A DNA stretch of 64,000 nucleotides from Alphaproteobacteria bacterium. Its GTDB lineage: Bacteria > Pseudomonadota > Alphaproteobacteria > Rickettsiales > JABCZZ01. Positions 1,630 through 42,689 of the stretch are shown piece by piece. The translations under genes were made by a program, and so were the position numbers. Positions within the stretch are counted from its first letter, which is position 1; each line of letters starts with the position of its first letter. The stretch spans positions 8,521 to 72,520 of the forward strand of contig JABDCC010000002.1 of the NCBI GenBank assembly GCA_013288335.1. Reading direction: 5' to 3'. The notes beneath the pieces are model-generated. The model was not told the DNA's origin. It saw nothing but the letters and a program-made list of their open reading frames with translations, and searched no databases.

Positions 1630-2076
1630 ATGTCTCTCTTACCTAACACACAGAGAGCATCTATGGCTGAACCAACGTCCACAAAAAATAGTGAAAAAGA
1701 ATCGGAAGCATTGAAGAAAATTGTAAGAAAAGCCGATCATTTCTCGGATTTTGGTACGCTCACCTCGCTGATTTCCACCGCATTTTATTTTGTTGAACAA
1801 GCCTTAAGTAAAAAACTGCCTAAATGGGTCAACAATCTATCCTTAGGCGCGGTCGGCGTTGGTATAGCTGCTATTTTTACATCCTTTTACTACCGGATGA
1901 AAGCAGGTGACATTGCACTCCATTCCTCTGCGCATATTGATGTGGTAACCGAGGCAAACAATAAGCCCTCACCTGAGATTTTGAATTCTGCCAAAGACCC
2001 TGAAGAAACAGAGCGCACACAAATACAAAAGAAATTTGCGCCCCGTACACATAGTACCACAGAACAAGAACGGTAA
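1630..2076 (+). CDS. hypothetical membrane protein
   Basis: 148-aa ORF with one or two hydrophobic segments (LSLGAVGVGIAAIFTSFYY). No family recognised. Confidence 0.45.
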   Translation: MSLLPNTQRASMAEPTSTKNSEKESEALKKIVRKADHFSDFGTLTSLISTAFYFVEQALSKKLPKWVNNLSLGAVGVGIAAIFTSFYYRMKAGDIALHSSAHIDVVTEANNKPSPEILNSAKDPEETERTQIQKKFAPRTHSTTEQER

Positions 2077-2210
2077 AAGACACAAAATTACCTTAATTGG
2101 CTGTTTTTCATTAACAATCCCACAAAATTAATAATCGCTGAAATTTACTAATTATTAACGAAGTTTCTGTAATATGAGACTTAATTAATAATGACTTTGG
2201 GAGTAGTCGT

Positions 2211-2867: not shown

Positions 2868-2876
2868 GTAGAGAAA

Positions 2877-2951
2877 TGGTGCTGCTGAGGTTAATCGAAA
2901 ACCCGACCCCGTCATTACCAATGACGTGCTCTACCACTGAGCTACAGCAGC
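2877..2951 (-). tRNA. tRNA-Thr (anticodon GGU), CCA encoded
   Basis: Minus strand reads GCTGCTG-TA-GCTCAGTGGTAGAGC-A-CGTCA-TTGGTAA-TGACG-GGGTC-GGGTT-TTCGATT-AACCT-CAGCAGC-A-CCA. This folds as a complete cloverleaf. Anticodon loop is TT-GGT-AA. Confidence 0.9.
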
Positions 2952-3038
2952 CTATACCATTTGCCCCTATAATTTATAAGGGGATATGCCTATAACAAGG
3001 CCTCTAAATAAAGGCAACTTTATTATTTCCGCTGCCGC

Positions 3039-3063
3039 AAAAAATTAGAGCAAAGCGCTCTAA
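3039..3063 (-). terminator. rho-independent terminator of sixA
   Basis: On the minus strand TTAGAGC-gcttt-GCTCTAA (7-bp stem, arms 3045-3051/3057-3063) is followed by TTTTTT (3044-3039). The stem overlaps the TAG stop of sixA. Confidence 0.55.
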
Positions 3064-3569
3064 TCCGCCGGAGTCATAAAATCGAGCAATTCTCCGCTCC
3101 CAGGGAGGATATCCTTCCAGTAATGGTCGGCAAAGCGCAGTACCGTGAGTGCTGCGGTTGGGTATTTAAGCTCCAAAGTCGCGTGTAAGCTTGAGCTCAT
3201 TGGCTGCGCCATAATGAGCGCCAGATGATGCATTCCCGGGTTGTGCCCCACCACCATAAGCGACTTAAAATTATCATCCGCCGCATGTAGCTGGTGCAAA
3301 ATCTCGTCGGCAGTGGCCATATAGATGCTTTTTGCAAATTCATGCGCAGGGGTGAGCCTCGCCGCCTTCATTACCAATTCAAACGTCTCGCGTGTGCGGT
3401 TTGCCGATGAGCACAGCACAAATTCCGGCGCATATTGTTTGGCCTTCATATACTTGCCGACCGTTTCGCACGCCTCACGTCCGCGCACGGCAAGATTGCG
3501 ATCAATATCTTCTATGGTGGAATTGCTCGGCTCCGCTTTGGCGTGACGCAATATGTAGAAAGTCTTCAA
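3060..3569 (-). CDS. sixA: histidine phosphatase superfamily protein (SixA-like phosphohistidine phosphatase)
   Basis: 169 aa. N-terminal LRHAKA (RHG-motif variant) and distal VGHNPG histidine motif are typical of SixA. Confidence 0.7.
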   Translation of the reverse strand: MKTFYILRHAKAEPSNSTIEDIDRNLAVRGREACETVGKYMKAKQYAPEFVLCSSANRTRETFELVMKAARLTPAHEFAKSIYMATADEILHQLHAADDNFKSLMVVGHNPGMHHLALIMAQPMSSSLHATLELKYPTAALTVLRFADHYWKDILPGSGELLDFMTPAD

Positions 3570-3580
3570 GGGAAACTCTT

Positions 3581-4936
3581 TTAATTTTTACTGGTTACTT
3601 TCTTTATACCGTCGAAAAATACAAGCTCAAGCAACTCTTCAGATTTTATCGCTTCGGCGCGTGTAATAATTTTTCCGCTCTTGTCACGTACCAGCGTAAA
3701 TCCGCGCTCCAGCACGGTTTTATAGTCTAAGTGTTTTAGAAGCTGCGCAAGATTTGCAAGTTTTTTCTCGTGTTCATTTATGTTGCGAAGCAGCATTCGT
3801 GCGATGCGTTCTTGCGCAAGTTTTAAATCCTGCGCATGACGTGTAATATTTTGCAAAAGACTACGTGGTTGAAGCTTCGCTATGAGAATAGCAAGCTGCT
3901 GGTTTTTCTTTTCTATCGATGCGGGCAGCGATGCCAAAAGACGCTCGCTCCAATCATCCAACCGCTGCATTGCGGTATCAATAATCCGCCCGGGGTGCGT
4001 AAGTCCGCGCGCAAAACCAGCAAGTGTATCACTGCGATTCTGCAACATGCGCGTGATGCCAGCGGATAACCGATTGCCACTTTCCATCACCGCAAGCAGC
4101 AAATCCTGCCGCACCGGCACTGCCATTTCCGCCGCCGCAGTTGGAGTGGGTGCGCGGCGGTCAGAAACATAGTCGATGAGAGTAGTATCGGTTTCATGGC
4201 CAACTGCCGAAATGAGTGGAATCTTGGATGCAAATGCCGCCCGCACAACAACTTCCTCATTAAACGCCCAGAGATCTTCGAGCGACCCGCCGCCGCGAGC
4301 GACGATGAGAAGATCGGGAGCCGCATCGTCATCCAACGCATTAAATCCCTCTATGGCTTCAGCAATCTGCTCTGCTGCTTTTTCACCCTGCACCGCTACT
4401 GGCCAGACGAGCACGTGGCAGGGAAAACGATCACTCAAGCGATGTAAAATATCACGAATCACCGCACCGGTGGGAGAGGTAATAACACCAATAACACGCG
4501 GCATGAACGGCAAAGGTTTTTTGTGTTTCTCATCAAACAACCCTTCCGCCGCAAGCATTTTTTTGCGTTTCTCGAGCAGTGCCATGAGCGCGCCCGCACC
4601 TGCGGGTTCCATATAGTCAATCACGAGCTGGTAATTGGAACGACCGGGATATGTGGTAAGCCTGCCCGAGCAAATCACCTCAATGCCGTCTTCCGGTTTG
4701 AATGGAAACTTGCCGACCACGCCTTTCCAGCACACCGCATCCAGCAGTGCGTTTTCGTCCTTGAGCTTGAGATAAGCATGGCCGGAGGTAGCCAATTTCC
4801 AGCCAGAAATTTCGCCGCGCACCCGTACATGGCCAAAATTATCCTCCACCATGCGCTTGATTGCACTGGATATTTCACTGACACTATAGGCAAACTGGTT
4901 GTGTGCTTCTTTAATTTCTTCCATAAATTCCATCAT
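3581..4936 (-). CDS. xseA: exodeoxyribonuclease VII large subunit
   Basis: 451 aa. N-terminal OB-fold segment (VRVRGEISGWKLATSGHAYLKLKD) and catalytic core (VITSPTGAVIRDI, ARGGGSLEDLWAFN) are present. Confidence 0.9.
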   Translation of the reverse strand: MMEFMEEIKEAHNQFAYSVSEISSAIKRMVEDNFGHVRVRGEISGWKLATSGHAYLKLKDENALLDAVCWKGVVGKFPFKPEDGIEVICSGRLTTYPGRSNYQLVIDYMEPAGAGALMALLEKRKKMLAAEGLFDEKHKKPLPFMPRVIGVITSPTGAVIRDILHRLSDRFPCHVLVWPVAVQGEKAAEQIAEAIEGFNALDDDAAPDLLIVARGGGSLEDLWAFNEEVVVRAAFASKIPLISAVGHETDTTLIDYVSDRRAPTPTAAAEMAVPVRQDLLLAVMESGNRLSAGITRMLQNRSDTLAGFARGLTHPGRIIDTAMQRLDDWSERLLASLPASIEKKNQQLAILIAKLQPRSLLQNITRHAQDLKLAQERIARMLLRNINEHEKKLANLAQLLKHLDYKTVLERGFTLVRDKSGKIITRAEAIKSEELLELVFFDGIKKVTSKN

Positions 4937-4990
4937 AAGCAGCCTATTACAAAATAGGTATGAAAATTTTATAAGTCCAAAATGTAAAAT

Positions 4991-6346
4991 ATGCTATATT
5001 GCCCTATGCTCGAGCAATTATTATCGGAAATCGCCCAGGTGCCGTCCTACAATCTTGTGGGAAGGGTTTTGTCGATCAAGGGCTTACTGGTGGAATGTTC
5101 CGGCATCGAAAAAGCCTTAAGCGTCGGCGCACGCTGCGAGATTATCGGCCTCATGCCGCATAACGGTGTCATCCCCAAAGTGAATTGCGAAGTGGTAGGT
5201 TTCCGCGAAGACCGCGCACTGCTCATGCCATTTGGCAATTTAGAAGGTATTGGCCTTGGCGCCAAAGTCGCGCTCCTTAGCTCAGAATCGGCTATTTACC
5301 CCGAAGACGCATGGCTTGGGCGCGTCATCAACGCGCTCGGCGAACCGCTTGATGGCAAAGGCCCGCTCCCTCTTGGTGACGTGCCTTATAATCTGCATGG
5401 AAAAGCGCCGGCTGCTCACACGCGGCAACGCGTGCGCGGTAAAATCGATTTGGGAATTCGCGCAATCAACACCTTCCTTACTTGCTGCAAAGGGCAACGC
5501 ATGGGCATTTTCTCTGGGTCCGGCGTCGGCAAATCCATATTGATGTCGATGCTCGGGCGTTACAGCCAGGCCGACGTAAACGTGATCGGCTTGGTCGGTG
5601 AACGCGGACGCGAAGTGCAGGAATTCATTGAAGATGATTTAGGCGAAGAAGGCTTGAAGCGCTCGGTAGTGATTGTCGCCACTTCCAGTGAGTCGGCTTT
5701 GCTTCGCAGACAAGCGGCGTATGTCACTTTATGCGTTTCTGAATATTTCCGCGATCAGGGGAAATCGGTGTTGTGCGTCATGGATTCGGTTACCCGCTTT
5801 GCTATGGCACAACGTGAAATCGGCCTATCTGCTGGTGAGCCACCTACCACCAAAGGCTACACGCCAACCGTATTCTCTGAACTACCACAACTCCTGGAAC
5901 GCGCTGGCCCAGGTAGCGCCGGACAAGGTTCCATCACCGGCATGTTCAGCGTATTGGTAGAAGGCGACGATACCAACGAACCTATCACCGACGCGGTGCG
6001 CGGTATATTAGACGGCCATATTATTTTAGATCGCGCCATTGCCGAGCGCGGAAGATTCCCGGCAATCAACGTTCTGCGCAGCGTGTCGCGCACCATGCCC
6101 GATTGCAACAACGAAAAAGAAAACCAACTGGTAATAGCTGCACGACTGGTAATTTCTACCTATGAAAATATGGCGGAAATGATTAGGCTTGGCGCATATA
6201 GACGCGGAACCGATCCGGATGTGGATCGCGCCATGCAGATTTATCCGGCAATTGAAAAATTCCTCGCCCAACGCAAAGAAGAACAGAGTGAACTTAGCAC
6301 CGGCTACGAGGAACTCGCTAAAATATTAGGTATCCCATGGCCGTGA
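4991..6346 (+). CDS. fliI: flagellum-specific export ATPase FliI
   Basis: 451 aa. Walker A GSGVGKS, Walker [13 protein letters not shown], and F1/T3SS-ATPase-type C-terminus. Followed by fliJ with an overlapping start. Confidence 0.9.
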
Positions 6347-6768
6347 AAACCTTAGATACACTCATCCGGCTTCACAAGCAACGTGTCGATATCATGCGCC
6401 GTGAAATGGTAGCATTTGAAGAAGAACGCAGGCAATTGCTCGCATTTGCCGAAAGGCTAAAACGGGAACATGCTGAGGAAATGCAGCTGATGCTTGCAGA
6501 AGTAAAAGTAGCGAGTTTCTTTGGCTCCTACTCTGCAGGCGTCAAACAAAAATTGTTGAACATTGACGGGGAAGTAAAAAGGCTGGATGCTGCCATTGAA
6601 GAAAAAGCTGAAGCCATCCGCGAAGAATTCAGCGAGCAGAAAAAATATGAGATCACCAGAGAAACCACACTCAAGCGCATAGAACAAAAGGAAAAAAATT
6701 TGTTGCAACAACGTTTTGACGAAATAGGATCGCAGCAATATCATAAGGCCAAGGAAAATCCTTTATGA
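6337..6768 (+). CDS. fliJ: flagellar export chaperone FliJ-like coiled-coil protein
   Basis: 143-aa, highly charged, predicted coiled coil. Its ATG at 6337 overlaps the fliI 3' end (fliI stop TGA at 6344-6346). Position and size match fliJ. Sequence family is weakly conserved, so the call rests mainly on context. Confidence 0.65.
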
Positions 6769-8570
6769 AATGCGCACGTTATTTTATCGGTCTGTTAATT
6801 TTTTCTATTACTTGCAACAGTAACGCAGCATTTGCGAGCGTAAAAAGCCAGTGCCGCGATCAGGCACAAAGCCGCCTCGAATTATACGACAAACCCGATA
6901 CCTATCCGATAAGCGACGAAGAAAAAAATAATGCGCTTCAGGCACTCTATATTGAATGTATGCGCGAGCAGCAGGGAAAAGCCGCAAATGAGACAGATAT
7001 TGACACCCGAAATGCCAAATACCCGCCAGCACATGCCGATGTTGTAGTCAGCAATCCTCCTGCTAATCCCGATCCGAACTCGCCAAATTCCAAAGTAATA
7101 GCCGTTCAGGGTAGCGAGGTTTTGCCCGCCAATGCAGCCAGCGCTCCGGTGGTAAAACACCCGGAAGGAGGGCTATATCAAGGTGCAACCGTTGTATATA
7201 TACAAGGTTCTCCCCCCACTATATTTAACCCTGCCAATCCTAATGCTACCCCACCCGCGAATGGCCAACCGCAAAATGGCGTCAATGCTAATGTAGCTGC
7301 AAATCCAACCACGGCGGCAAACGGACAACCGCAAAATGGGCAAACTCAAAATGGCCAGCCCCAAAATGCTCAGGCGTCTAACAAGCAAGATGCAGATAAG
7401 GCAGCGCAAGCGGCCAAAGCGCAACAACCACCAGTCGTTATCAATAATAACGTTGTGGGGGCGCCGCCTGTAAAAGCTACTGCAGCAGCACCCGCCACAA
7501 CACCACCTGCTTCTAATACTGCCACTGCCGCAGCAACACCGCCCGCTGCAAATGCTGCCGTAAACGCTGCGCAGAAAGCGGCAACTGTTCCGCCAGTAAC
7601 TGTGGCGGCAACTCCGGCTGTCGCCGTTACGCCCCCTGCTGCTACTGTTGCTATACCGCCAGTTTCTAGTCCCACCGCCGCACCCGTAACCCCCACTTCC
7701 GTTGGCAATCTTTCCGCGCCCGCAACCATTCCAAATGCAACTGCCTCAACTCCAGCATCTGCTACACCAACGACGGCATCTTATCGTCCTGCTGCTGTAC
7801 CCGCTAATCCAACATCCTTGTCGGTAGTCAATAACCTGCCAGCTACTGCTCCTGCCGCTAAAGCCGCAACGGTTCCTGCAAACTCAGCGTCACCCGCAAA
7901 TTATGCCGCCGTTGCTTCTCCTTCCGTACCCACTACTCCATTAGGAGTAAATGCCTCCTTGCCTTCCGTTTCTGCAAACCCCGCTTTGCCGCAAGCAAAT
8001 ATTGCTGCACCTATACCAGTACCAGCAGCCTCTGCCTCACTTCCAGCCGGAACCCTGACACCTCCAGTACCGAGCAACAATTCGGTTTCCGTAGTCAATA
8101 ATATACCACGCTCTGCTGCACCGGTTTATCCGACGGCTGCGCCTGCCGCTGCAGTCAAAAATGCACCTTATACTCCGCCCGCTGTGACCACGAATATCAC
8201 TTCACCCACGAATGTTGCTAATCATGTGCCTTCTAATCTTTCTGCAACTGCACCCGCTTCAAATGCAGCTGGGAAAATACCCCCAATCAATACACCACAG
8301 GCGAATATAGTTTCGGGCGCCAAGCCAGCTACTACTGCTAATCCCGCTTCGAAGCACTCTCCTTTGCTTGCGTATAATTCCGATAAAGTGAAACCGAATG
8401 CAAAACCTCTTCATAACGTCACAACTACACATAAAACGGCAAACAATAACGGGGTGAAATCTACAAGTAGCACAAACAAAAGTTCTGCAACTCAACCACC
8501 CGCAGCAACAACTAAAACAACCAGCAGCAAAAGCAATGCTGAGCTAGAACAGATTTTAGGCGGAAATTAG
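6765..8570 (+). CDS. secreted protein: novel 2-Cys N-terminal domain plus ~500-aa Pro/Ala/Thr/Asn-rich low-complexity tail
   Basis: 601 aa with signal peptide (..CNSNAAFA). ATGA overlap with the fliJ stop (6765-6768). The N-domain is homologous to the next ORF. QPQNG repeats are present. Confidence 0.6.
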   Translation: MKCARYFIGLLIFSITCNSNAAFASVKSQCRDQAQSRLELYDKPDTYPISDEEKNNALQALYIECMREQQGKAANETDIDTRNAKYPPAHADVVVSNPPANPDPNSPNSKVIAVQGSEVLPANAASAPVVKHPEGGLYQGATVVYIQGSPPTIFNPANPNATPPANGQPQNGVNANVAANPTTAANGQPQNGQTQNGQPQNAQASNKQDADKAAQAAKAQQPPVVINNNVVGAPPVKATAAAPATTPPASNTATAAATPPAANAAVNAAQKAATVPPVTVAATPAVAVTPPAATVAIPPVSSPTAAPVTPTSVGNLSAPATIPNATASTPASATPTTASYRPAAVPANPTSLSVVNNLPATAPAAKAATVPANSASPANYAAVASPSVPTTPLGVNASLPSVSANPALPQANIAAPIPVPAASASLPAGTLTPPVPSNNSVSVVNNIPRSAAPVYPTAAPAAAVKNAPYTPPAVTTNITSPTNVANHVPSNLSATAPASNAAGKIPPINTPQANIVSGAKPATTANPASKHSPLLAYNSDKVKPNAKPLHNVTTTHKTANNNGVKSTSSTNKSSATQPPAATTKTTSSKSNAELEQILGGN

Positions 8571-22797: not shown

Positions 22798-24519
22798 ATG
22801 AGCAAGAGAATTATGAAAAGCTTCACCACGGTAAAAGCAAAACTCCGCATCGTTTTTGCCTTATTCTTTGCAATGATTTGTGCTCTTGCGCTTTATGGCA
22901 ATAACAATCTAAAAGAACTTAAAGACGATATAAATCATATCAGTGTGGATATAACCCCGCAGTTGCGGCTGCTTCAGGATATTGACGGTGATGTTGTACA
23001 GTTCAGGGTAGAAGAAGCTTCACATGTCCTTTCTACCGACTCTCAGACAAAAGATACACATGAAGCTCAAATGAAGAAATATGCAGCTGAAATAGACGAC
23101 TGGATAAAGAAATTTTTAAATAGCGATATTTCCAGTAAGGAAAAAAAGCATGTAAACGAATTTATTGATGTCTGGAATCAGTACCTTACGATAAACAAAC
23201 AATTGCTACCTGTTTCGCGCCAGTATGATTCTCCCGCGCATGCAGAATTTTTAGCTCAAGCGGCTGAATTGTTTAATAAACAAGGTGAGTCTGTCTATCT
23301 CAAATCAGACAAGTTATTGAATGCATTGGTTGATGGCATGTCAGAAGAAAGTGATGCCGCCTCCGATGATGCCAACAACTTTGTAGGAATTTCAATACGC
23401 AATGGCACGATAGCTATGGGAATAGCAGCGATAATCAGCATCCTGATGGTGGTTATGTTTGAGCGCACGGTGTTGCGTTACCTCATTCGGATAACATTGA
23501 GTATGAAAAGATTATCGGGAGGAGACAACACCGTTGTCATTGAAGGCACGAAACGCTCCGACGAAATTGGTGAAATGGCAAAATCGCTGGAAGTATTTAA
23601 AGAAAACGCCTTGCAAAAAGAACGTATGGAGCAAGAACAAAAGCAGATGGAAATAAACGCGGAAATAGAAAAGAAGACTATGATGCACAAATTGGCCGGA
23701 GATTTTGAGTCCGGGATACAGGGTATAATTACCACTGTATCTTCCGCCGCAACTGAGCTATATCAGACTGCTGAGGATATGCAAAAAACCGTCGCTAATG
23801 TAAGCACGCAATCAGGAACGGCCGCTGCAGCATCCGAGCAAACTTCCGGCAATGTGCAGAGCGTATCAGCAGCTGTAGAAGAAATGTCTGCCTCGGTCAG
23901 GGAAATAGCCAGCCAGATTTCCAAATCTACGGTGTTGGTGAATGCAACCGTAAAACAAACCGAGCAGGCAGATAAAACCACGCAGGCGCTTTCCGATGCC
24001 GTTGTACAAATTAGCGGTATTCTCGATTTGATCCAGAATATTGCCGGGCAGATCAATCTGCTTGCCCTTAACGCGACAATCGAATCAGCGCGCGCTGGCG
24101 ATGCCGGCAAAGGATTTGCGGTGGTCGCCTCGGAAGTTAAAAACCTGGCAGGACAAACCACCAAAGCTACAGAGGAAATTGCCAAACAGATAGGAAACGT
24201 ACAACATGCAGCGCAAGAAGTAGTGGGGGTATTGAGTGCAATCAACGATGCTATTGGTAATGTTAACCAATACTCATCCGGCATTGCTTCGGCGGTAGAG
24301 GAACAGGCGACTGCCACACAGGAAATCGCAAGCAACATGCAACACGCTTCTCAAGGCGTGCAAAACATCACCAGTAATATTTCCGAAATCACTAAAGGCG
24401 CATCGAATGCTAATCATGCGGCAAACGAAGTTCTAAGCGCATCGCAGATGCTTTCACAACAGTCTGAAATGCTGAACCAACAGGTTAAATTATTTCTGGA
24501 CGGGGTAAGAGCTGCGTAA
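22798..24519 (+). CDS. methyl-accepting chemotaxis protein
   Basis: 573 aa with two TM segments flanking a ~170-aa periplasmic helical domain and a HAMP domain. The highly conserved MCP signalling hairpin is present (IAGQINLLALNATIESARAGDAGKGFAVVASEVKNLA). Confidence 0.9.
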   Translation: MSKRIMKSFTTVKAKLRIVFALFFAMICALALYGNNNLKELKDDINHISVDITPQLRLLQDIDGDVVQFRVEEASHVLSTDSQTKDTHEAQMKKYAAEIDDWIKKFLNSDISSKEKKHVNEFIDVWNQYLTINKQLLPVSRQYDSPAHAEFLAQAAELFNKQGESVYLKSDKLLNALVDGMSEESDAASDDANNFVGISIRNGTIAMGIAAIISILMVVMFERTVLRYLIRITLSMKRLSGGDNTVVIEGTKRSDEIGEMAKSLEVFKENALQKERMEQEQKQMEINAEIEKKTMMHKLAGDFESGIQGIITTVSSAATELYQTAEDMQKTVANVSTQSGTAAAASEQTSGNVQSVSAAVEEMSASVREIASQISKSTVLVNATVKQTEQADKTTQALSDAVVQISGILDLIQNIAGQINLLALNATIESARAGDAGKGFAVVASEVKNLAGQTTKATEEIAKQIGNVQHAAQEVVGVLSAINDAIGNVNQYSSGIASAVEEQATATQEIASNMQHASQGVQNITSNISEITKGASNANHAANEVLSASQMLSQQSEMLNQQVKLFLDGVRAA

Positions 24520-29951: not shown

Positions 29952-29990
29952 TTAATGATAGGGAGTTTAATTAAGTATAGCAAAATTCAA

Positions 29991-31799
29991 ATGACTTCTG
30001 ATATTTCAAACATTCTCAACATCGTCCCTGCCCCAGCGCCCGCTCCGTCACCATCGCAGAGCGCGCCGCAGGCAGATGCGACGACTAATCAGAATAATTC
30101 CGCTTCCTCTGACTCTACACAGAACACTGCAAGTCAATCTGCAAATAGCCAATCCGCAAATCAGAATTCAAACTCAGCTTCTAATCAGGCTTCAAACCAA
30201 ACCGGACAGACTCAGGCAAATAATTCTGCAAATCAATCGAGCAATACTAATAATAATGGTAGCTCTCATTTCAGTAAATTGCTGGATAGCACTAATAGTA
30301 ATAATACACAGAAATCAAATGCGACTTCTTCGACTTCATCTGCCGCAACTTCTGCAAATGCAAAATCGGTAAATACTCAAAAATCAGACACAAAATCAGA
30401 TAATGCCGCTGCAACCGATGCTACCAATAACATCGCGGCGGTAGTGTTGCTAGCGCAGACACAAACACTTACCAATACAACGCAAAGCACCAACCCTACT
30501 CAGACGACTTCATCCGCAAATAGCCAGCCTGCTACGGCATTATCGGCGCAGGACATAAATATATTAAATCAGCTGCAGCAAATCCTGCAGGAACTTTTAC
30601 AGAAGGCAACCGCTTCCGCGCAAACCGCTACAACTTCTACTGCTGCTACAACAGCCGCAGCAGGTAGCGATGGCAACACCGATTCTACTGCGAAATCTTC
30701 TTCGGGCGATACAAACTCAAAGGATGCGCTTTTATCGCAAGCACTCGCACAATTAACCGCCATCTTGCAGCAGTTAAGCCCACAAACCAATGCAGCCGCC
30801 ACAACAAATACGGCCACGGATGCAAATGCTATAGGCTCAGTGACAGATGGCTCCTCTTCAGGCGCTTCTGCGCTTGCTGACGTGCTTGCCAAACTCTCTC
30901 AGCTGCTTGAAACTAAAATAGATGCAACTAATACTTCTGCAACCGACGCTGCTGCCGCCACTACTGCAAATACCACGAATACAAACAGCAAATTCGATGC
31001 TATTTTAAACAACCTTTTGCAGTCGGTTAAAAATGACGCATCTGCTGCGCAGACACCGCAAACCAATTCCGGTCAAGCCAACTCAGGTCAGACTAATTCC
31101 GGCAATCAGCAATCAGCGGCCAATACAAATAACGCAAACAATATCCCGCTGCCCAATATCACGAATAATGCAGCTACTTCTTTGCAGGCTACATTTGAAA
31201 AAATTCTGGCAATCATCACCCCGGGACAAAATCCTCTGCCAGGTTCAAAGAATTCTACTGATAACAATACTACTAATGCAGCGAACAGCACTAATGCCAC
31301 CCAAGCTAACTTTGGCATAGCTGCTAACCAGCAGGCTCAGGGTAGCCCATTTGTGAAACTCTTAAATACCGCCGCTGCACCGCAGACACCGGTTTCCGAT
31401 CAAGTGCTCGTGCAGATAAAAACGGCGCTGAACAGTAATGCCAACCAGATACGCGTGCAACTTGACCCGGAAAATCTCGGCAAGGTAGATGTGCGCATGG
31501 TAACGGGCACGGATGGCAAAACCGGCGTTACGGTGACTGCCGATAACCGCCAGACGCTTTCCATGCTGCAAAATGAAGCCAAATCGCTGGAATCGGCGCT
31601 GCGCAATCTGGGCATTAAAACTGATTCGGGTAGCCTCAGCTTTAACCTTAGACAACAGCAGGATGGGCGTAATTCCGGCCAGCCCCAAGGCGGCTATACC
31701 CATGTGGCGCAAACCACTGCTCCAGACGATCTGGAAGTTGGCACGACAATTGCTTCATATCATGTAACGACGAAACAAGGTTTAGACATAAGAGTTTAA
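29991..31799 (+). CDS. fliK: flagellar hook-length control protein FliK
   Basis: The C-terminal Flg_hook-type domain is present (QIRVQLDPENLGKVDVRMV..GVTVTADNRQTLSMLQNEAKSLESALRNLGI). The N-terminal ~480 aa are Q/N/S/T/A low complexity. The track start 29955 would lie upstream of the predicted sigma54 TSS, so ATG 29991 (MTSDISNIL) is preferred. The start is uncertain. Confidence 0.75.
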   Translation: MTSDISNILNIVPAPAPAPSPSQSAPQADATTNQNNSASSDSTQNTASQSANSQSANQNSNSASNQASNQTGQTQANNSANQSSNTNNNGSSHFSKLLDSTNSNNTQKSNATSSTSSAATSANAKSVNTQKSDTKSDNAAATDATNNIAAVVLLAQTQTLTNTTQSTNPTQTTSSANSQPATALSAQDINILNQLQQILQELLQKATASAQTATTSTAATTAAAGSDGNTDSTAKSSSGDTNSKDALLSQALAQLTAILQQLSPQTNAAATTNTATDANAIGSVTDGSSSGASALADVLAKLSQLLETKIDATNTSATDAAAATTANTTNTNSKFDAILNNLLQSVKNDASAAQTPQTNSGQANSGQTNSGNQQSAANTNNANNIPLPNITNNAATSLQATFEKILAIITPGQNPLPGSKNSTDNNTTNAANSTNATQANFGIAANQQAQGSPFVKLLNTAAAPQTPVSDQVLVQIKTALNSNANQIRVQLDPENLGKVDVRMVTGTDGKTGVTVTADNRQTLSMLQNEAKSLESALRNLGIKTDSGSLSFNLRQQQDGRNSGQPQGGYTHVAQTTAPDDLEVGTTIASYHVTTKQGLDIRV

Positions 31800-31817
31800 A
31801 TAATAGGAGTGAGTTTT

Positions 31818-32537
31818 ATGGGTTTATTATCAGGTATCGCAGGTTCAACGGCAGCAGCAACAAGCAGCACCGGCACCGCAGCACCAAGTCTTGCTGGTGA
31901 TTTTAACACTTTTCTTACCCTGCTTACTACTCAGCTTCAGAATCAGGACCCGACCAGCCCTGTAGATTCGAACCAATTTACCCAGCAGCTGGTAGAATTT
32001 GCCGGGGTACAGCAACAGGTGCAGAGCAATACGTTGCTCCAGCAGCTAGTGACTAACTCACAGGCGAGCCAGGTAAGCTCAGCATCTTCATTCATCGGCA
32101 CCAATATTACCGCAACCGGCAATTCCGGCGCACTGACCAATGGTAAAGCGACATTCGGCTATACACTTCCAAGCGCTGCCACTGCGGCAAATGTTACTAT
32201 AAGCGACAGCAACGGTAATATCGTGTTTGAAGGCACCGGCAGCACTAACGCCGGCAATAATCCGGTTTCTTGGGATGGCACAAACAGCTTCACCGGCGCA
32301 ACTGAGCCAGACGGCGTGTACACCATAGCAGTGAAAGCAGTTGGCTCCGCAGGTAATGCCATTACAGCAACTCCTTACGTCACTGGCACGGTGGATTCTG
32401 CTTCTATCAGCAACGGATCGGTCGTTCTAAATATCGGCTCACTTAGCATACCAGAAGCCAATGTAACCAGCGTGACCAATCTCCCGGGCACACAGACTAC
32501 CAGCGTACCTCCAACAACAACGACACCAACGAGTTAA
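31818..32537 (+). CDS. flgD: flagellar hook assembly/capping protein FlgD
   Basis: ATG 31818 lies 8 nt after AGGAG. The FlgD N-domain motif DFNTFLTLLTTQLQNQDPTSPVDSNQFTQQLVEFAGVQQ and a FlgD Ig-like middle part are present. Confidence 0.85.
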   Translation: MGLLSGIAGSTAAATSSTGTAAPSLAGDFNTFLTLLTTQLQNQDPTSPVDSNQFTQQLVEFAGVQQQVQSNTLLQQLVTNSQASQVSSASSFIGTNITATGNSGALTNGKATFGYTLPSAATAANVTISDSNGNIVFEGTGSTNAGNNPVSWDGTNSFTGATEPDGVYTIAVKAVGSAGNAITATPYVTGTVDSASISNGSVVLNIGSLSIPEANVTSVTNLPGTQTTSVPPTTTTPTS

Positions 32538-32597: not shown

Positions 32598-35474
32598 ATG
32601 GGTTTATTTGGAGCATTATTTGCAGGCGTATCGGGCTTAGATTCGCAGTCAAATAAAATCAGTATTATTTCCAATAACATCTCGAACGTAAACACGATCG
32701 GTTATAAAGAAAGCTCTGCAGCTTTTGATACGCTCGTAGTACCATCGGGAAGCTCATCATTCTCTCCGGGTGGCGTTATCAGCAATAACCAGCAGCTAGT
32801 GAGCAAACAAGGTCTTGTGCAAGGCACTTCTTCAGGCACCGATCTTTCCATATCCGGCGCAGGTTTCTTTGCCGTAAACACAGCTGCCGCCGCAGGGGTT
32901 GGTCAGTTACTCTATACACGCTCCGGTTCCTTCACTCAGGATTCTGCCGGTAACTTCGTTAACTCTAACGGATTGTTCCTGCAGGGCTGGTTGCTCGATA
33001 GCAGCGGTAATAAAGTAAACAGCACCAACAGTTCTGACCCTTCTTCTTTACAGACCGTTACCATCGCAAGCAATTCTTCCGGTGCGGCAACCGCTACTTC
33101 TACCGTTGCGCTCACCGCTAACCTTAATGCAAGCCAACCTGTATTGCTTGGTTCCGGTGAAACCGTAAATTTTGATAAAAACAGCGCCAACAATCTTGGC
33201 AATACCGCAACTGATTTACTTGCAAGCAATGAATATGATGCGGATGTTCCAAATAGCGGAATGGTTCGCGGCGACAGCTTTACCGTTACTACTACCGCTA
33301 ATAACCAGACACCTGTTGCTACGGCATTTACTTACGGCGGATTTTCTATCGGTAAAAATATTACCGAAGCAACCGCAGCCGGTAATGGCGATAACACTAC
33401 TTATATAAACCAGGTAAATCCTGTTACAACGACTGGGTCAGGTCATGTCGTGACCCTTGCAGCTCCTAACAATAATTATTTTGTAGGACAGTCCGTTACC
33501 ATAACCGGTGCCTCAGCAGTGGGTGGTTTTACTGCACCTCAGATTAATGGGACATATACTATTACCGCAGTAACCGGTGGCGCAAACGGCACTATTCAAT
33601 ATACGTCTGCCGGCACCTCGACCTCAGCAGTGGCAGGTGGAGGTGGAACCGGAATAGGTATCGCGCTTGCTGCACCAGCAGTAAAGACATTTGATTTGCC
33701 GTCTGGTTCATTTACAGATACGGCAGCAATAGCAGGTGGCACCAGCACAATTACCGTGACAACACCTTCAGCGCATGGCTATGGAACCGGACAAACGGTG
33801 AACATAGAAAATGCCGCCGGATTTGATGGAATCCCAGCAAGCTTACTAAATGGCCCTCATTCTAATATAAACGTTATCGATTCCACTCACTTTTCTTTCA
33901 CTATCACTACCACTGCTATTGCCGCAGGTGGTGTAACAGGTGGCGGCACCACGGCTTCGGTTGCTAACCGCACCTATCCTTTTGCCGGCAATATTCTGGA
34001 CGCAACTACCACCGCAGACGCTTTCCTTGCCACTACCACCACGGCACCTTTTAGCGCAAGCGCTCTGGATTTCCAGATTTCCGGAACCAGCAGCTCTACT
34101 TCCACCTTTACTTATGTGGCCGGATCGCCTGATACAAGCTCTGGGCAATTCAACAGCTTGGATACTTTGGTGCAGGCAATCAACGCCACCACCTCTTACA
34201 ATGCGCGTATCGTGAATAACCGCCTCTATGTAGGCGCAACCGATGCTAATGAAGGCGTTACCTTTACCAATGGTGATGCATCAGGTACTAACGGTAAACT
34301 CGGAATCGATTGGGTTTCTGAACTTGGCCTTTCCAATGTACCGGCAGCATCTACCATCAGCTCAAACACCAAACGCTTTGACGATTTGAGCAACCTAGAG
34401 ACCCAAATCAATAGCACTGCGGGTTTAACTGCAAGCATCACTGATCCAACAGGTGCTGCAAGTATCAGCATCAATGCGAGCAATCCGGAAAACACCATTG
34501 AGTTTGCCGATAGCGATAACGCCATCGCCACTGCGGCAAATGGCAATACGGCTGTGATTAACACCGGCAGCGTGATTCAGGAATTAGGTTTCACTTCATC
34601 CACCGGCGCTATCTTTACTTCAGCAGATAAAGGCGTTGGAACCGCCACCGCTAATGGCTATGATACTGGCCAGTTCGGGGTGAAATATGCTTCGAACATT
34701 TCCAGCAAAAACATGGCAAGCGGCGCGATTAAGCCACAATTTACCAGTGACGTGGTGGTATATGACGCACTCGGTGTAAGCCATACGCTGGCAATGGACT
34801 TTGTTAAAATTGATTCTACCACCAATACCTGGGCAGTTGAAGTTAACGCCGTACCGGCAAGCGATGTCACCGTCACTGCAGGAACTCCCGCAGGACAGTT
34901 AGCAGCAGGCACGGTTTCCTTCAACGGCGATGGTTCACTTGCAAATGTAAGTGCGGGACTTGCGGGCAAGGTTACCATTGACTGGAGTCCATCCACCAGC
35001 GCAGCAGGTGCAAGCACCATAACGTTCAATTTTGGCTCACAAAACAAAACCGACGGACTCAGCCAGTTCAGCGCTACTTCTAACACCACTAACACGGTGC
35101 AGAACGGTTCTTCTTCTGGTGAACTCACCGGGGTAAGCATTGACCAGAATGGTTTCGTGATTGAAAGCTTCAGCAACGGCCAGAGCCAGAAAGCGTTCCA
35201 GATTCCGCTCATTTCAATCAATAATCCGAATGGTTTGGAAGGTGTCTCAGGCGATGCATTCAAAATCACTCAGGCAGCAGGTACTGCTACTGCGGTAAAT
35301 GCGGGCACGAACGGCACCGGGTCGCTTACTTCTTCATCACTTGAAGAATCGACCGTGGATCTTTCGACCCAGCTTACCGATTTGATTGTAGCCCAGCAGG
35401 CATATGGTGCGAACTCGAAACTGCTCACCGTGGCCGACCAGTTACTGCAGTCGCTCGATCAGATTATTCAGTAA
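32598..35474 (+). CDS. flgE: flagellar hook protein FlgE, unusually large (958 aa)
   Basis: The conserved Flg_bb_rod N-terminus (MGLFGALFAGVSGLDSQSNKISIISNNISNVNTIGYK) and C-terminus (LTDLIVAQQAYGANSKLLTVADQLLQSLDQIIQ) are intact. The FlgE D1/D2 segment (VYDALGVSHTLAMDFVK) is present. A large T/A/G/S-rich central insertion separates the termini. Confidence 0.85.
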   Translation: MGLFGALFAGVSGLDSQSNKISIISNNISNVNTIGYKESSAAFDTLVVPSGSSSFSPGGVISNNQQLVSKQGLVQGTSSGTDLSISGAGFFAVNTAAAAGVGQLLYTRSGSFTQDSAGNFVNSNGLFLQGWLLDSSGNKVNSTNSSDPSSLQTVTIASNSSGAATATSTVALTANLNASQPVLLGSGETVNFDKNSANNLGNTATDLLASNEYDADVPNSGMVRGDSFTVTTTANNQTPVATAFTYGGFSIGKNITEATAAGNGDNTTYINQVNPVTTTGSGHVVTLAAPNNNYFVGQSVTITGASAVGGFTAPQINGTYTITAVTGGANGTIQYTSAGTSTSAVAGGGGTGIGIALAAPAVKTFDLPSGSFTDTAAIAGGTSTITVTTPSAHGYGTGQTVNIENAAGFDGIPASLLNGPHSNINVIDSTHFSFTITTTAIAAGGVTGGGTTASVANRTYPFAGNILDATTTADAFLATTTTAPFSASALDFQISGTSSSTSTFTYVAGSPDTSSGQFNSLDTLVQAINATTSYNARIVNNRLYVGATDANEGVTFTNGDASGTNGKLGIDWVSELGLSNVPAASTISSNTKRFDDLSNLETQINSTAGLTASITDPTGAASISINASNPENTIEFADSDNAIATAANGNTAVINTGSVIQELGFTSSTGAIFTSADKGVGTATANGYDTGQFGVKYASNISSKNMASGAIKPQFTSDVVVYDALGVSHTLAMDFVKIDSTTNTWAVEVNAVPASDVTVTAGTPAGQLAAGTVSFNGDGSLANVSAGLAGKVTIDWSPSTSAAGASTITFNFGSQNKTDGLSQFSATSNTTNTVQNGSSSGELTGVSIDQNGFVIESFSNGQSQKAFQIPLISINNPNGLEGVSGDAFKITQAAGTATAVNAGTNGTGSLTSSSLEESTVDLSTQLTDLIVAQQAYGANSKLLTVADQLLQSLDQIIQ

Positions 35475-36594: not shown

Positions 36595-38019
36595 ATGGAA
36601 CTGGGCGAAAAGCTATTAGCTAAAATTCGCCCCGTTATTCTCTGCGGTGGTTCCGGCACGCGCCTCTGGCCGGTATCACGAGAAGAGTATCCCAAACAAT
36701 TCGTTCCGCTTTTTGATGGAATTTCTCTTTTTGCCAAAACCCTGAATCGTGTGAATGATCGCACGCATTATGCCCCGCCTTTAATTATAAGCAATATCGC
36801 TCATAAATTTCATATTACTTCTATTTTAAAAACGCTCGGAGTTACCGATGCAATAATTCTACTGGAACCTTATTCACGCAACACCGCTGCGCCGGCCATT
36901 ATTGCCGCGCTCCATGAGATAGACTCGGAACCGGGAACGCTTCACCTGGTGATGCCATCGGATCACATTATTGATGATGAGATTGCTTTTCATGATGCCA
37001 TTACTCGTGCCTGCACACTTGCCGCTGAGGATATTGTACTCTTTGGAATAGCGCCCACACATCCTGCAACCGGCTATGGCTACATATTAGCTGATGGCAA
37101 CATGAAGATTGCCAAATTTCACGAAAAACCTGCCGTAGAACAAGCGCAAGAATTTATTGAAAAAGGCGCATTATGGAATAGTGGAATTTTTCTCTACGCC
37201 CCTTCCCTTTTGCTCAAAGAAGCAAAGCTATACGATCAGGTTCATTTAGAAAAATGCAAGCAGGCATTGGCAGAAGCCACTCGCGATCCCTATAACAGCC
37301 ACTGCCTGTTGCTTGGTGGTGAGGCTTATGCAGAAATGCAAAGCCCTGCCTTCGACACGCTTATCATGGAAAATACCACGCATGGCGCTGTAGTAAAATG
37401 TGAAATGGGCTGGAGCGATGTGGGATCATGGCAGGCAATGTATGAGGTCTCGGGAAAAGATACCGCAGGAAATTCGACAACTGACGACGCGATAATCAAA
37501 GATACCACGAATTGCTATATTCATTCCGAAGGCAGAAAAATTGCGGTGCTCGGAATGGACAATTGCATGATAATAGACACTCCGGATGCGCTTCTGATTG
37601 CACCGCTTTCGCGCGCAGAAGAAGTAAAAACATTGGTTGCTGCAGTTAAAACAAAATATGAGGCTGTGGTTCGCGAGCATCATTTTCACCCGCGCCCTTG
37701 GGGAACATATGAAATAGTTGCGCGCGGAAAAAATTTTCTCGTGAAACAAATTATAGTCTGGCCAGGAAGATCTTTATCCGAGCAAAAACATACCTACAGA
37801 TCAGAACATTGGATGATCGTCGAAGGCACTGCTCAAGTAATGTGTGATGGCAAAGAAGAAATTATTTCGGTAAACCAGCCTTTCTTTATACCTATTGGTT
37901 CAAGGCACCGGCTGCGTAATCCCGGAAAAACCGATTTACGCATGATTGAAATACAATCCGGCGATTATATTGGCGAAGACGACATCACCCGTTTTGAGGA
38001 TATGTACGGAAGAGTTTAA
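36595..38019 (+). CDS. manC: mannose-1-phosphate guanylyltransferase / mannose-6-phosphate isomerase (type II PMI-GMP)
   Basis: 474 aa. N-terminal nucleotidyltransferase motif (ILCGGSGTRLWPVSRE..PKQF) and C-terminal cupin domain (RPWGTYE.., EHWMIVEGTA). Confidence 0.85.
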   Translation: MELGEKLLAKIRPVILCGGSGTRLWPVSREEYPKQFVPLFDGISLFAKTLNRVNDRTHYAPPLIISNIAHKFHITSILKTLGVTDAIILLEPYSRNTAAPAIIAALHEIDSEPGTLHLVMPSDHIIDDEIAFHDAITRACTLAAEDIVLFGIAPTHPATGYGYILADGNMKIAKFHEKPAVEQAQEFIEKGALWNSGIFLYAPSLLLKEAKLYDQVHLEKCKQALAEATRDPYNSHCLLLGGEAYAEMQSPAFDTLIMENTTHGAVVKCEMGWSDVGSWQAMYEVSGKDTAGNSTTDDAIIKDTTNCYIHSEGRKIAVLGMDNCMIIDTPDALLIAPLSRAEEVKTLVAAVKTKYEAVVREHHFHPRPWGTYEIVARGKNFLVKQIIVWPGRSLSEQKHTYRSEHWMIVEGTAQVMCDGKEEIISVNQPFFIPIGSRHRLRNPGKTDLRMIEIQSGDYIGEDDITRFEDMYGRV

Positions 38020-39773
38020 CCCCTGTGTTCCGTCTGCGCGTAAAGATTATAATAGGCACTGTCCTGCTTCTGCATCAGCGATTCATGCGTGCCGGATTCC
38101 ACAATTCTTCCGTGATCGAGCACATAGATAATGTCGGCGTTGCGGATGGTAGTAAGGCGATGCGCCACTACCAGCGTTGTGCGGTTTACCATGAGTTTAT
38201 CCAGCGCATCCTGCACCACACGCTCAGAGGTATTGTCGAGCGATGAAGTCGCTTCATCAAGCAGCAGAATCGGTGCATTCTTTACAATCGCACGCGCAAT
38301 GGCGAGGCGCTGGCGCTGACCGCCGGAGAGCTTCACGCCGTGCGGGCCTATCATGGTGTCATAGCCTTTGGGAAGCTCACGGATAAATTCATCGGCAGCC
38401 GCCATTCTCGCGGCATTTACTATTTCATCCTCACTTGCCTCAAGCCGTCCATAGGCAATATTCGCGCGCACGGTATCATCGAACAATACTATTTCCTGAC
38501 TCACCAGCGACATCGAGCCACGTAGCGATGCCAGTGTCACTTCACGAATATCCTGATCATCGACCGTAATCATGCCGCGATTCAAGTCATAAAAACGCAA
38601 GAGCAGATTCACCATGGTGGATTTTCCACTGCCGGAGGAGCCAACGAGTGCTACGGTTTTTCCCGCAGGAACGTTGAGTGTGATATCATCAATACCGCCA
38701 GTATCTTTGGCATAGTGGAATGAAGCATTTTCAAATCGAATTGCACCTTCGGATACTTTAAGCGGTTTAGCATTGGGCGCATCGGCAATCTCCGCTTTCA
38801 TGTCGAGCACCACAAATAACCGGCTTGCGGCAGCCAAGCCTTCCTGCAATGAGTTATTGAGTGTCACCAATGTTTTCGCAGGCTTATACGCCATGATCAT
38901 CGCAGCGACAAAAGAGAAAAATGCGCCGGGAGTGCTCTCACCATGAATAACGCCGTAACCGCCAAACCAGATGACAGCCGCAATGGATGCGCCGGTGAGT
39001 AACTCCATAATCGGAGAAGCCGCCGCCTGAATGCGCGAACCTTTGAAATAAAGACCATAGAGATTTTCAATGATTTTGCGCGCGCGGCTGATTTCATGTT
39101 CTTCGCGCCCATACGCTTTCACCATGCGCACACCGTGGAAGGTTTCATCAAGCTGGGCGGCAAAATGGCCAAGCTGCTGCTGAGTAGAATCAGAAATTTT
39201 GCGCATCCTGCGACCGAGGCGAATAACCGGAAGCACAGCAATCGGGAACACCACAAAAGCAATAAGCGCGAGGCTCGTATTTTGGTGAAACATGAGCGCC
39301 ACGAGAAACACCATGGTGAAAAAATCTTTGGCGATGCCGGTAAGCACGGTGGAAACCGCATTGCGCATAAGCATAATATCATTGGTAAAACGTGATATCA
39401 GCCGACCCGATGCCTGATCGTGAAACACCGACAAATCCGAATGCATCAGATGCGAAAACAGATCAATCTGCATATCCGCAATAATACGCTGGCCAACATT
39501 GCGCATAATCACCGTCTGGCCGTAAGAAGCAAACGCGCTCACCGTACCAATCGCAAACACCGCCATCGGCAGATAAAACAGCATGGTCGCGTTTTTCTTG
39601 AGAAATATATCGTCAAGCACCGGCTGCATCATCCAGGCGTTCGCCGCAGTTGCACCCGCCACCAGCATCATGCAAATAACTGCAAAAATGAGCTTCCGCA
39701 CATGGCTGGAAAGATAATCCTTCACGAGGCGCTTAAGCAGTGGCAGTGTTTGATATGCTAGTATTTCTTTCAA
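38016..39773 (-). CDS. ABC transporter permease/ATPase fusion (MsbA-like lipid exporter family)
   Basis: 585 aa. Six-TM exporter domain, then Walker A GSSGSGKST, signature LSGGQRQR and Walker B ILLLDEATS. Neighbours dgkA and manC suggest an envelope/lipid role. Confidence 0.8.
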   Translation of the reverse strand: MKEILAYQTLPLLKRLVKDYLSSHVRKLIFAVICMMLVAGATAANAWMMQPVLDDIFLKKNATMLFYLPMAVFAIGTVSAFASYGQTVIMRNVGQRIIADMQIDLFSHLMHSDLSVFHDQASGRLISRFTNDIMLMRNAVSTVLTGIAKDFFTMVFLVALMFHQNTSLALIAFVVFPIAVLPVIRLGRRMRKISDSTQQQLGHFAAQLDETFHGVRMVKAYGREEHEISRARKIIENLYGLYFKGSRIQAAASPIMELLTGASIAAVIWFGGYGVIHGESTPGAFFSFVAAMIMAYKPAKTLVTLNNSLQEGLAAASRLFVVLDMKAEIADAPNAKPLKVSEGAIRFENASFHYAKDTGGIDDITLNVPAGKTVALVGSSGSGKSTMVNLLLRFYDLNRGMITVDDQDIREVTLASLRGSMSLVSQEIVLFDDTVRANIAYGRLEASEDEIVNAARMAAADEFIRELPKGYDTMIGPHGVKLSGGQRQRLAIARAIVKNAPILLLDEATSSLDNTSERVVQDALDKLMVNRTTLVVAHRLTTIRNADIIYVLDHGRIVESGTHESLMQKQDSAYYNLYAQTEHRG

Positions 39774-41663: not shown

Positions 41664-42689
41664 ATGCAGGCAATTCACCGCAATAATTTCGATTTCATCC
41701 GTTTATCTGCTGCAATCATGGTCTGGTATGGCCATTGTTATGCACTCGTAAAACTCAACGATCCTCTCGAGCGAGCTATCTCATTTGAGGCTTTTGGAAG
41801 CCTCGGTGTTACTATTTTCTTTATCATCAGCGGGTATTTTGTAACCGCCAGTTACAACAATAACAAACGCTTTCTGCCTTATATGCGAAACCGTGCATTA
41901 CGCATATTACCCGCATTATTTGTGGTCGTTTTGCTCAGCGTTTTCGTGCTTGGTCCATTGGTTACCACACTATCAATCGGTGATTATTTCAGCAATCATA
42001 TCACCTGGCGCTACTTAAAATGTATGCTGATTTTTCCATTGCAATATGATTTGCCGGGAGTGTTTACGCATAATGCCATGAGTGCAGTCAACGGCTCCTT
42101 ATGGACATTACAACATGAGCTGCGACTTTATATTGTGATAGCATTGCTCGGTGTACTTGGCATTTTGCGCCCACGCTTGATGCTTGTTTTGTTGGTTGGT
42201 TTATATGTTATCCGTATGTATGGATACGTAACCGTGCCACCACCGGAGAAACTTTTTACCGTGAAGTGGGGCAAGCTGGAACTGGCGGTAAAACTTGCCA
42301 GCCAGTTTGCTGGTGGCGCACTTATGTATCTGGCGCGTGACAAACTGATCTTGTGCAAAAAGTATTTTGTGATTGCATTGTTGTTGCTCGGCGGGAGTCT
42401 TTTTTTGCCTGCTATAGCCAACAGCATGTTGTTTGATATTGGTCTTACTTATGCCGTTATTTATCTGGGGTTTCTAAAACTTCCATTGCTTCCAATGGCT
42501 GGAAAGTATGGCGATTTTTCGTATGGATTTTATCTTTATGCTTTTCCCATACAGCAGCTTTCCCTGCAATTACTGGGTAGCGATCCCGGTTTTGGAGCGT
42601 TTTTGTTTACGAGCTTTGTAGCAACTTTTCTGTGTGCAATTCTCTCGTGGCATTTTGTGGAAAATCCGGCTTTATCGCTCAAACGCTGA
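41664..42689 (+). CDS. acyltransferase family 3 membrane protein (O-acyltransferase)
   Basis: 341 aa with ~10 TM segments. N-terminal motif (NNFDFIRLSAAIMVWYGH, GVTIFFIISGY) is typical of the Acyl_transf_3 family. Confidence 0.8.
   Translation: MQAIHRNNFDFIRLSAAIMVWYGHCYALVKLNDPLERAISFEAFGSLGVTIFFIISGYFVTASYNNNKRFLPYMRNRALRILPALFVVVLLSVFVLGPLVTTLSIGDYFSNHITWRYLKCMLIFPLQYDLPGVFTHNAMSAVNGSLWTLQHELRLYIVIALLGVLGILRPRLMLVLLVGLYVIRMYGYVTVPPPEKLFTVKWGKLELAVKLASQFAGGALMYLARDKLILCKKYFVIALLLLGGSLFLPAIANSMLFDIGLTYAVIYLGFLKLPLLPMAGKYGDFSYGFYLYAFPIQQLSLQLLGSDPGFGAFLFTSFVATFLCAILSWHFVENPALSLKR

Follow-up and report, generated by a model that had tools for sequence, protein, structure and literature searches.

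The gene at positions 32598..35474 of a 64,000-nucleotide (nt) alphaproteobacterial stretch (GCA_013288335.1, contig JABDCC010000002.1, positions 8,521–72,520, forward strand; the whole stretch is hereafter the window) encodes a flagellar hook protein, FlgE, of 958 amino acids (aa), whose domain D2 carries an insertion of about 480 aa (residues 221–700) that is unmatched by any FlgE model. The insertion is composed of a hairpin stalk, a conserved alpha/beta scaffold and, nested within the scaffold, two small tandem beta-barrels, which resemble barrels of phage tail and tailspike proteins. We propose that the insertion most likely builds additional layers on the outside of the hook, which by analogy with known enlarged hooks would thicken and stiffen it; the probability of this reading is put at roughly 0.55.

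The conserved FlgE core

The open reading frame (ORF) was confirmed on the plus strand, with an ATG start and an intact frame of 958 aa. Four Pfam modules are found at its ends, all above their cut-offs: Flg_bb_rod (PF00460, 32.0 bits against a cut-off of 20.7), FlgE D1 (PF22692, 36.9 against 27), FlgE_D2 (PF07559, 62.2 against 22.7) and Flg_bbr_C (PF06429, 44.8 against 23). TIGR03506 also passes its cut-off (216.9 bits against 70.25), and the matches of the NCBIfam FlgE models fall into two stretches, one at each end of the protein. Both terminal FlgE segments are intact, as an earlier note on this DNA had stated. The nine FlgE equivalog models of NCBIfam all score below their cut-offs (for instance NF004242 297/365, NF040922 276/750 and TIGR02489 207/413), so that the protein lies outside the described FlgE subtypes and its membership of FlgE rests on the Pfam domains and the gene context. 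The gene and the two parts of its core are as follows.

32598..35474 (+): whole flgE gene including the stop codon; Pfam and NCBIfam FlgE models at both ends, sequence matches to FlgE chains in the PDB
32598..33257 (+): N-terminal core (aa 1–220), comprising the D0 helix, Dc, the N-terminal half of D1 and the first D2 strands; Flg_bb_rod at 10–37, D1 at 85–156, NF040922 over aa 1–219, 5jxl residues 3–185
34698..35471 (+): C-terminal core (aa 701–958), comprising the rest of D2, the C-terminal half of D1 and the D0 helix; FlgE_D2 at 716–837, Flg_bbr_C at 912–956, 5jxl residues 566–849

Sequence matches to FlgE in the PDB are restricted to aa 6–183 and 674–956, the best being the 851-aa hook protein of Campylobacter jejuni (5jxl). 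The same structure is the top fold match (E 3.9e-26) of a full-length AlphaFold model, which was built on a 118-sequence alignment and has a mean predicted local distance difference test (pLDDT) score of 83.1; the fold of the core is matched as well by the FlgE D1/D2 structures 1wlg, 6ndw and 9wx3. The invariant residues of the core are kept across the 118 homologs, and identity to relatives is 0.61 over aa 1–160 and 0.58–0.61 for D0/D1. Judged by homology, this is the organism's working hook gene flgE, the product of which is predicted to polymerise into the hook. That it is a hook gene rather than a stray paralog is indicated by the fliK-flgD-flgE context, found here and in three relatives with FlgE proteins of 928–1030 aa.

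Layout of the insertion

The inserted residues are rich in threonine (17%), alanine (13.5%), glycine (12.5%) and serine (10%) and contain no cysteine. A FlgE with a large surface insertion is supported, as is the T/A/G/S-rich composition pointed out in the earlier note; the length of about 600 aa given there has to be shortened to about 480 aa, the rest of that span belonging partly to D2. Insertion and core have the same GC content, and no repeats are found at the DNA level, so that the insertion is taken to be old and resident. From its N-terminal to its C-terminal end it is laid out as follows, the two repeat units lying within the scaffold.

33258..33383 (+): hairpin stalk at the start of the insertion (aa 221–262), with conserved RGD...YGGF..GR; strands at 227–233, 240–246 and 249–254, pLDDT ~88–95
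33432..33638 (+): barrel 1 (aa 279–347), a predicted FCCH/endosialidase-type beta-barrel; family barrel hidden Markov model (HMM) E 1.3e-14, no Pfam match by itself
33639..33731 (+): inter-barrel linker, G/A/S/T-rich (aa 348–378); pLDDT <50 at aa 338–358
33732..33938 (+): barrel 2 (aa 379–447), predicted FCCH/endosialidase-type, motif HG..G..V.I...LNG...V.D..HF; family HMM E 1.3e-21
33960..34697 (+): alpha/beta scaffold, D3-like (aa 455–700); pLDDT 92–98, modelled with higher confidence than any other part of the protein
34134..34280 (+): scaffold repeat unit A (aa 513–561), GQFNSL..L..AIN....ARIVN..LYVGA.DA...VTF; family HMM E 1.1e-19
34362..34520 (+): scaffold repeat unit B (aa 589–641), KRFDDL..L...IN...GLTASI......ISINA.....IEF; family HMM E 3.2e-21

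Residues R224, G225, D226, Y246, G247, G248 and R253 of the stalk are nearly invariant in the family alignment, and in the model the stalk adjoins the scaffold of aa 455–700. Since this conserved stalk precedes the barrels, the domain order being stalk, barrels and scaffold, the barrel pair is nested within the scaffold. The linker is the least conserved region (identity 0.16), followed by the barrels (0.29–0.30) and the scaffold (0.41).

Units A and B of the scaffold are related to each other (hhalign Prob 97.1, E 5.7e-11, 46 columns) and have the common pattern F-N-S-L..L...IN...A.I....I.A......F, which makes them the second internal duplication of the insertion. Both units are present in 121 of the 122 family members analysed. 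The scaffold matches no Pfam family, and aa 455–705 have no sequence relative in the PDB (best E 0.19). The units presumably resemble the Flagellin_IN motif, and no membership of that family is claimed; PF07196 was unmatched in aa 451–701 by hmmscan at E≤1.

Two related barrels of a class found in phage tails

The two segments singled out in the earlier note lie where it had placed them, at aa 282–337 and 385–439, and its suggestion that they are tandem, related small beta-barrels is well borne out. When family sub-alignments of the segments (columns taken from alignment A1, which holds 24 full-length family members) were compared by hhalign, the first matched the second with Prob 98.5 and E 4e-15 over 58 columns. 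When each barrel segment was compared with five further regions of the protein as a control, the E values were only 0.02–0.75, and hence the similarity is not an effect of composition. The full-length AlphaFold model predicts barrel 2 with fair confidence and barrel 1 weakly. In a domain-level model, computed from a clean 18-sequence sub-alignment, both barrels reach a pLDDT of about 79–90 (~75–88 over barrel 1), and in this model both have an identical strand order and one short helix.

Both barrels are assigned, on the grounds of profile and model comparisons, to the E1_FCCH / endosialidase beta-barrel class. The orthologous barrels of two relatives pass the cut-off of E1_FCCH (PF16190), with 57.4 bits in P0048 and 55.7 bits in P0002, the former also coming near the cut-off of End_beta_barrel; altogether, E1_FCCH is matched by 9 of the 24 full-length relatives at E≤0.01. 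With the barrel-region profile A4, the endosialidase of phage phi92 (4hiz_A, residues 191–259) is the sole significant solved protein, at E 3.8e-4, and the two share the motif HGL..GD.V.F. In a Foldseek comparison of the barrel model with the PDB, the K1F and phi92 endosialidases rank at the top (prob 1.00; for 4hiz a root-mean-square deviation (RMSD) of 2.7–2.9 Å over 91–93 columns) and the E1 FCCH structures come next (prob 0.80–0.96), all E values being above 1e-3 (0.012–0.5). Among predicted viral structures there are 21 Foldseek matches at E≤1e-3; the best two, at 3.5e-9 and 4.1e-9, span both barrels, and tail fibres and tail proteins are among the named ones.

When the insertion was searched exhaustively by phmmer against 1.84 billion cluster representatives, only 137 matches reached E≤1e-3. 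Twenty of these are limited to the barrel region, and 13 of the 20 fall into phage tail or virion-structural PHROG families, several carrying E1_FCCH or End_beta_barrel; none of the 20 is another flagellar protein. A 1434-aa candidate with 24 matching stretches (P0165) is a zinc-knuckle (zf-CCHC) repeat protein and was rejected as a compositional false positive of this search. The barrels thus share ancestry with decorating domains of phage tail tubes, of tail fibres and of tailspikes. A link to phage tail-fibre or decoration proteins had been drawn in the earlier note, and it now finds support in Pfam (E1_FCCH/End_beta_barrel), the phi92 barrel, Foldseek and the PHROG families.

A family with a variable number of barrels

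A word-indexed search found 174 homologs, the sequences of 122 of which were fetched and analysed. Their lengths are 800–899 aa in 44 members, 900–999 aa in 37 and 1000–1353 aa in another 37. According to the family HMMs, the number of barrel copies per member ranges from 0 to 7, and length correlates with copy number with a Pearson r of 0.90, as reflected in the medians below.

0–1 barrel copies: median length ~850–870 aa
2 barrel copies: median length 932 aa
3 barrel copies: median length 1016 aa
4 barrel copies: median length 1035 aa
5 barrel copies: median length 1202 aa
7 barrel copies: median length 1268 aa

The 958-aa FlgE with its two barrels is a mid-sized member of this family. The earlier note had set it at or beyond the top of the known size range, a view which does not hold given the 37 relatives of 1000 aa or more and the fact that close relatives routinely have the same size and the same domains; 23 of them align with it end to end at 43–59% identity, most with both barrels. 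Its length does exceed that of every characterised hook protein in the cited literature, in which the 865-aa FlgE of C. jejuni is termed ‘one of the longest’ (PMC5069557). All members so far come from metagenome-assembled genomes, the named sources being Rickettsiales, Alphaproteobacteria or Pseudomonadota. In the same scan, cultured alphaproteobacteria (Novosphingobium, Kordiimonas, Caulobacter, Oceanicaulis and others) gave matches of ~1300–1450 nt, corresponding to FlgE proteins of ~430–480 aa.

The position of barrel 1 is itself variable. In six full-length relatives (P0015, P0019, P0023, P0027, P0042 and P0099) barrel 1 is replaced by an unrelated segment of ~85 aa (A1 columns ~330–430), which points to a cassette-like swapping at this position. 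The replacing segment carries a helix-like motif, ‘sLntIAanIqaal’, and gives no profile match to the scaffold units (E 0.07–0.1).

One contig found in the scan, from an uncultured Sulfurospirillum (L080), has a tblastn FlgE match of 3151 nt at 3242–6392, in which the longest ORF starts at 3870 (843 aa); a separate ORF of 587 aa lies at 2030–3793, and either a frameshift or two adjacent flgE-like genes are possible.

Comparison with known systems

The C. jejuni FlgE (5jxl, 5az4; 851–865 aa) is the best solved match of the whole protein in both sequence and fold. In both proteins the extra material is placed at about the same site of D2, as the flanks of the insertion correspond to 5jxl residues 3–185 and 566–849. 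The layouts are similarly nested: in C. jejuni, D3 is encoded by codons 233–262 and 439–618 and D4 is nested at 263–438 (PMC5069557), and in the present protein the barrels lie inside aa 221–262 and 455–700. A thicker hook with additional outer layers is expected in both cases. The Campylobacter D3 and D4 domains supply contacts both inside a protofilament and from one protofilament to the next, and their contribution to the robustness of the hook was put to the test with deletion mutants (PMC5097172). The differences are also clear. By BLASTP, an epsilonproteobacterial FlgE aligns with aa 3–183 and 717–956 only, with 35% identity over 717–956, and the score of the flgE_epsilon model TIGR02489 is 206.7, the cut-off being 412.85. 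The outer unit here consists of tandem FCCH-type barrels in variable copy number, which is unreported for Campylobacter, and the lineage is alphaproteobacterial rather than epsilonproteobacterial.

The Caulobacter crescentus FlgE (591 aa, 5ay6) has a single extra domain, D3, inserted at about the same point of D2, and the N-terminal 219 aa of the present protein match the Caulobacter-type model NF040922. However, the score of this model is only 275.7 against a cut-off of 750, aa 455–705 give no sequence match to 5ay6 or any other PDB chain, and the present protein is 367 aa longer and bears barrels.

With the endosialidase barrel (PF12195; K1F 1v0e/3gvk, phi92 4hiz) and the E1 FCCH domain (PF16190; 2v31), the barrels share the motif HG..G(D/Q).V.(I/F)...(L/I)N(G)...V..(V/I)D...(F/Y)T(I/V)T, whereas the protein carrying them is a flagellar axial protein and neither an enzyme nor a virion protein. 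A parallel in architecture is offered by the siphovirus tail-tube proteins gp39/gp13, in which an FCCH domain faces outward from a helical tube (PMC13576161). These are tube-forming subunits with the core at the lumen and an FCCH-type barrel outside, the same design principle as the one proposed here, but the core folds are unrelated (phage tail-tube barrel versus flagellar D0/D1/D2) and the phage proteins have a single N-terminal FCCH domain instead of a nested tandem array. In the giant flagellins of Oceanospirillales, internal domain duplication in the exposed region leads to measurably thicker filaments (Thomson et al. 2018, PMC6248924). There too a flagellar axial protein is enlarged by internal domain duplication in a surface-exposed region, although it is flagellin and not the hook protein, the inserted domains are others and the lineage is gammaproteobacterial.

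Proposed role of the insertion

In solved hooks, D2 points outward. Homology shows that D0, D1 and D2 of the present protein build the usual tubular hook. The scaffold would then form a third layer around D2 in the assembled hook, and the barrels an outermost layer, loosely or flexibly tethered to it. By analogy with Campylobacter D3/D4, these added layers would thicken the hook and supply additional contacts between subunits, giving rise to a more robust hook. The earlier note had suggested that extra domains exposed on the surface would change the stiffness or antigenicity of the hook, and such an effect may follow. The barrel layer is modular, with 0–7 copies in relatives on an otherwise constant protein. 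Precedents that back such a layered hook are the contacts made by Campylobacter D3/D4 and the outward FCCH domains of the siphovirus tubes.

Several points weigh against this proposal. The layered arrangement and the stiffening are argued by analogy, and no sequence similarity could be detected between the insertion and the D3/D4 on which the analogy draws; the full model superposes poorly on 5jxl throughout the insertion (TM 0.32, RMSD 23.7 Å), and the scaffold of aa 455–705 resembles no solved structure by sequence. As to the barrels, E1_FCCH reaches 17.5 bits (E 0.0043) on barrel 2, under its 29.5-bit cut-off, and does not match barrel 1, which is modelled only moderately well. Lastly, the copy number of 0–7, the low conservation and the disordered linker would suit a dangling surface array better than a load-bearing layer.

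What might such an array be for? The barrels could be glycan-binding or adhesive modules instead of mechanical ones, ~240 per hook at two per subunit, which bind the cell's own capsule or lipopolysaccharide, a sheath, or a host or prey surface in the way the phage endosialidase barrel binds polysialic acid. We regard this as rather unlikely, though it has a number of points in its favour. The nearest solved relatives are endosialidase beta-barrels, and in K1F the homologous barrel contains one of the three sites that bind polysialic acid and is a hotspot of host discrimination (PMC12632334). The closest sequence relatives outside FlgE are phage tail, tail-fibre and virion proteins; a variable copy number together with flexible linkers suits a binder that works by avidity; and candidate surface-glycan genes (ManC, ABC exporter and acyltransferase) lie just downstream. 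However, the match to the endosialidase barrel is at a low identity of 19–20%, FCCH-type barrels are also found as apparently inert decorations, and adjacency alone links the downstream genes to the hook. In addition, the barrels contain neither Lys nor Arg, which argues against an acidic sugar such as sialic acid.

Alternatively, the barrel array may be a variable surface coat that alters or masks the hook against flagellotropic phages, grazers or antibodies and that drifts as it has little mechanical role. This could account for the barrels and the linker being the least conserved regions, for the range of 0–7 copies and for the swap of barrel 1 for an unrelated ~85-aa segment in six close relatives, and the domain is common to phage virion proteins. 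Nevertheless, next to the filament the hook presents a small target, and the motif positions of the barrel are well conserved family-wide, suggesting purifying selection on the fold and probably on a function. We consider a coat of this kind quite unlikely. Finally, the gene might be decaying or encode an FlgE paralog outside the hook, as does Cj0043 of Campylobacter, its insertion then having no flagellar function; this is highly improbable. The window covers 64 kb of the genome, so a second flgE may lie elsewhere, and of the two flgE-like genes of C. jejuni only one builds the hook (PMC5069557), but the reading frame is intact, the invariant core residues are kept across the 118 homologs, the fliK-flgD-flgE arrangement is conserved and the insertion scaffold reaches pLDDT 92–98 from coevolving homologs. 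Extra outer layers of the hook are the role that we prefer for the insertion.

Genomic context

Directly upstream of flgE are a fliK-like gene and flgD, and the GTPase gene obg lies downstream of it.

29955..31799 (+): fliK-like hook-length control gene, 614 aa, the first gene of the fliK-flgD-flgE unit; Pfam Flg_hook (PF02120) at aa 487–568, E 1.4e-13
31809..32537 (+): flgD, hook-cap (scaffold) gene, 242 aa; Pfam FlgD, FlgD_ig and FLgD_tudor

The same gene order, fliK-flgD-flgE, is found in the relatives L001, L004 and L006 (FlgE of 928, 1030 and 950 aa, respectively), with fliD upstream in two of the three. The first ~480 aa of the FliK-like protein are of low complexity and rich in N/Q/S/T/A, the match to the FliK domain being confined to aa 487–568; in relatives, FliK has 545–697 aa.

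Downstream of obg are genes for a ManC-type mannose-1-phosphate guanylyltransferase/isomerase (36595–38019), an ABC exporter (38016–39773, minus strand) and an Acyl_transf_3 acyltransferase (41664–42689). These three may be surface-glycan genes, and their connection to the hook is one of mere adjacency. A methyl-accepting chemotaxis protein (MCP) with 4HB_MCP, HAMP and MCPsignal domains is encoded at 22798–24519 (+), 8 kb upstream of the hook operon, which fits a motile, chemotactic organism and not a reduced endosymbiont. The remaining window is that of an ordinary alphaproteobacterial chromosome, with genes for a Tim44-like protein, MltA, the MCP, malate synthase, hisD, aroA, GlnD and PriA. 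For one ORF of 601 aa at 6765–8570 (+), no Pfam family was found at E≤1e-5.

Significance

FlgE proteins with extra outer domains inserted in D2 are already known. What is new is the conserved duplicated scaffold together with an array of phage-type barrels, variable in copy number, in an alphaproteobacterial clade; in the literature searched we found no description of enlarged alphaproteobacterial or Rickettsiales hooks or of FCCH domains in flagellar proteins. Outer extra hook domains are known from few cultured bacteria, D3 and D4 being described as present in Campylobacter and related bacteria only (PMC5097172), and the gene studied here belongs to a separate alphaproteobacterial family, which has independently placed a much larger and differently built insertion at the same site of D2. 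A practical limit is that the members of this family so far all derive from metagenome-assembled genomes. Hook proteins reach at least 1353 aa, well above the 865 aa of the C. jejuni protein that ranks among the longest described, and this size range arises by gain and loss of copies of a single small barrel, of a type otherwise characteristic of phage tails and tailspikes.

It is conceivable, although improbable in our estimate, that in this uncultured alphaproteobacterial clade the hook has become a display scaffold carrying 0–7 phage-type glycan-binding barrels per subunit for adhesion or anchoring to polysaccharide, host or prey, the cassette having been exchanged between phage tail fibre and flagellum. 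If true, a receptor-binding type of phage domain would have been recruited into a flagellar axial protein, and the hook would have a second job beyond the transmission of torque. The family also bears on the question, raised by the giant flagellins, of whether other flagellar components enlarge correspondingly (PMC6248924). With 0–7 barrels on a constant scaffold, it provides a natural series for studying how outer domains set the diameter, the stiffness and the surface properties of the hook.

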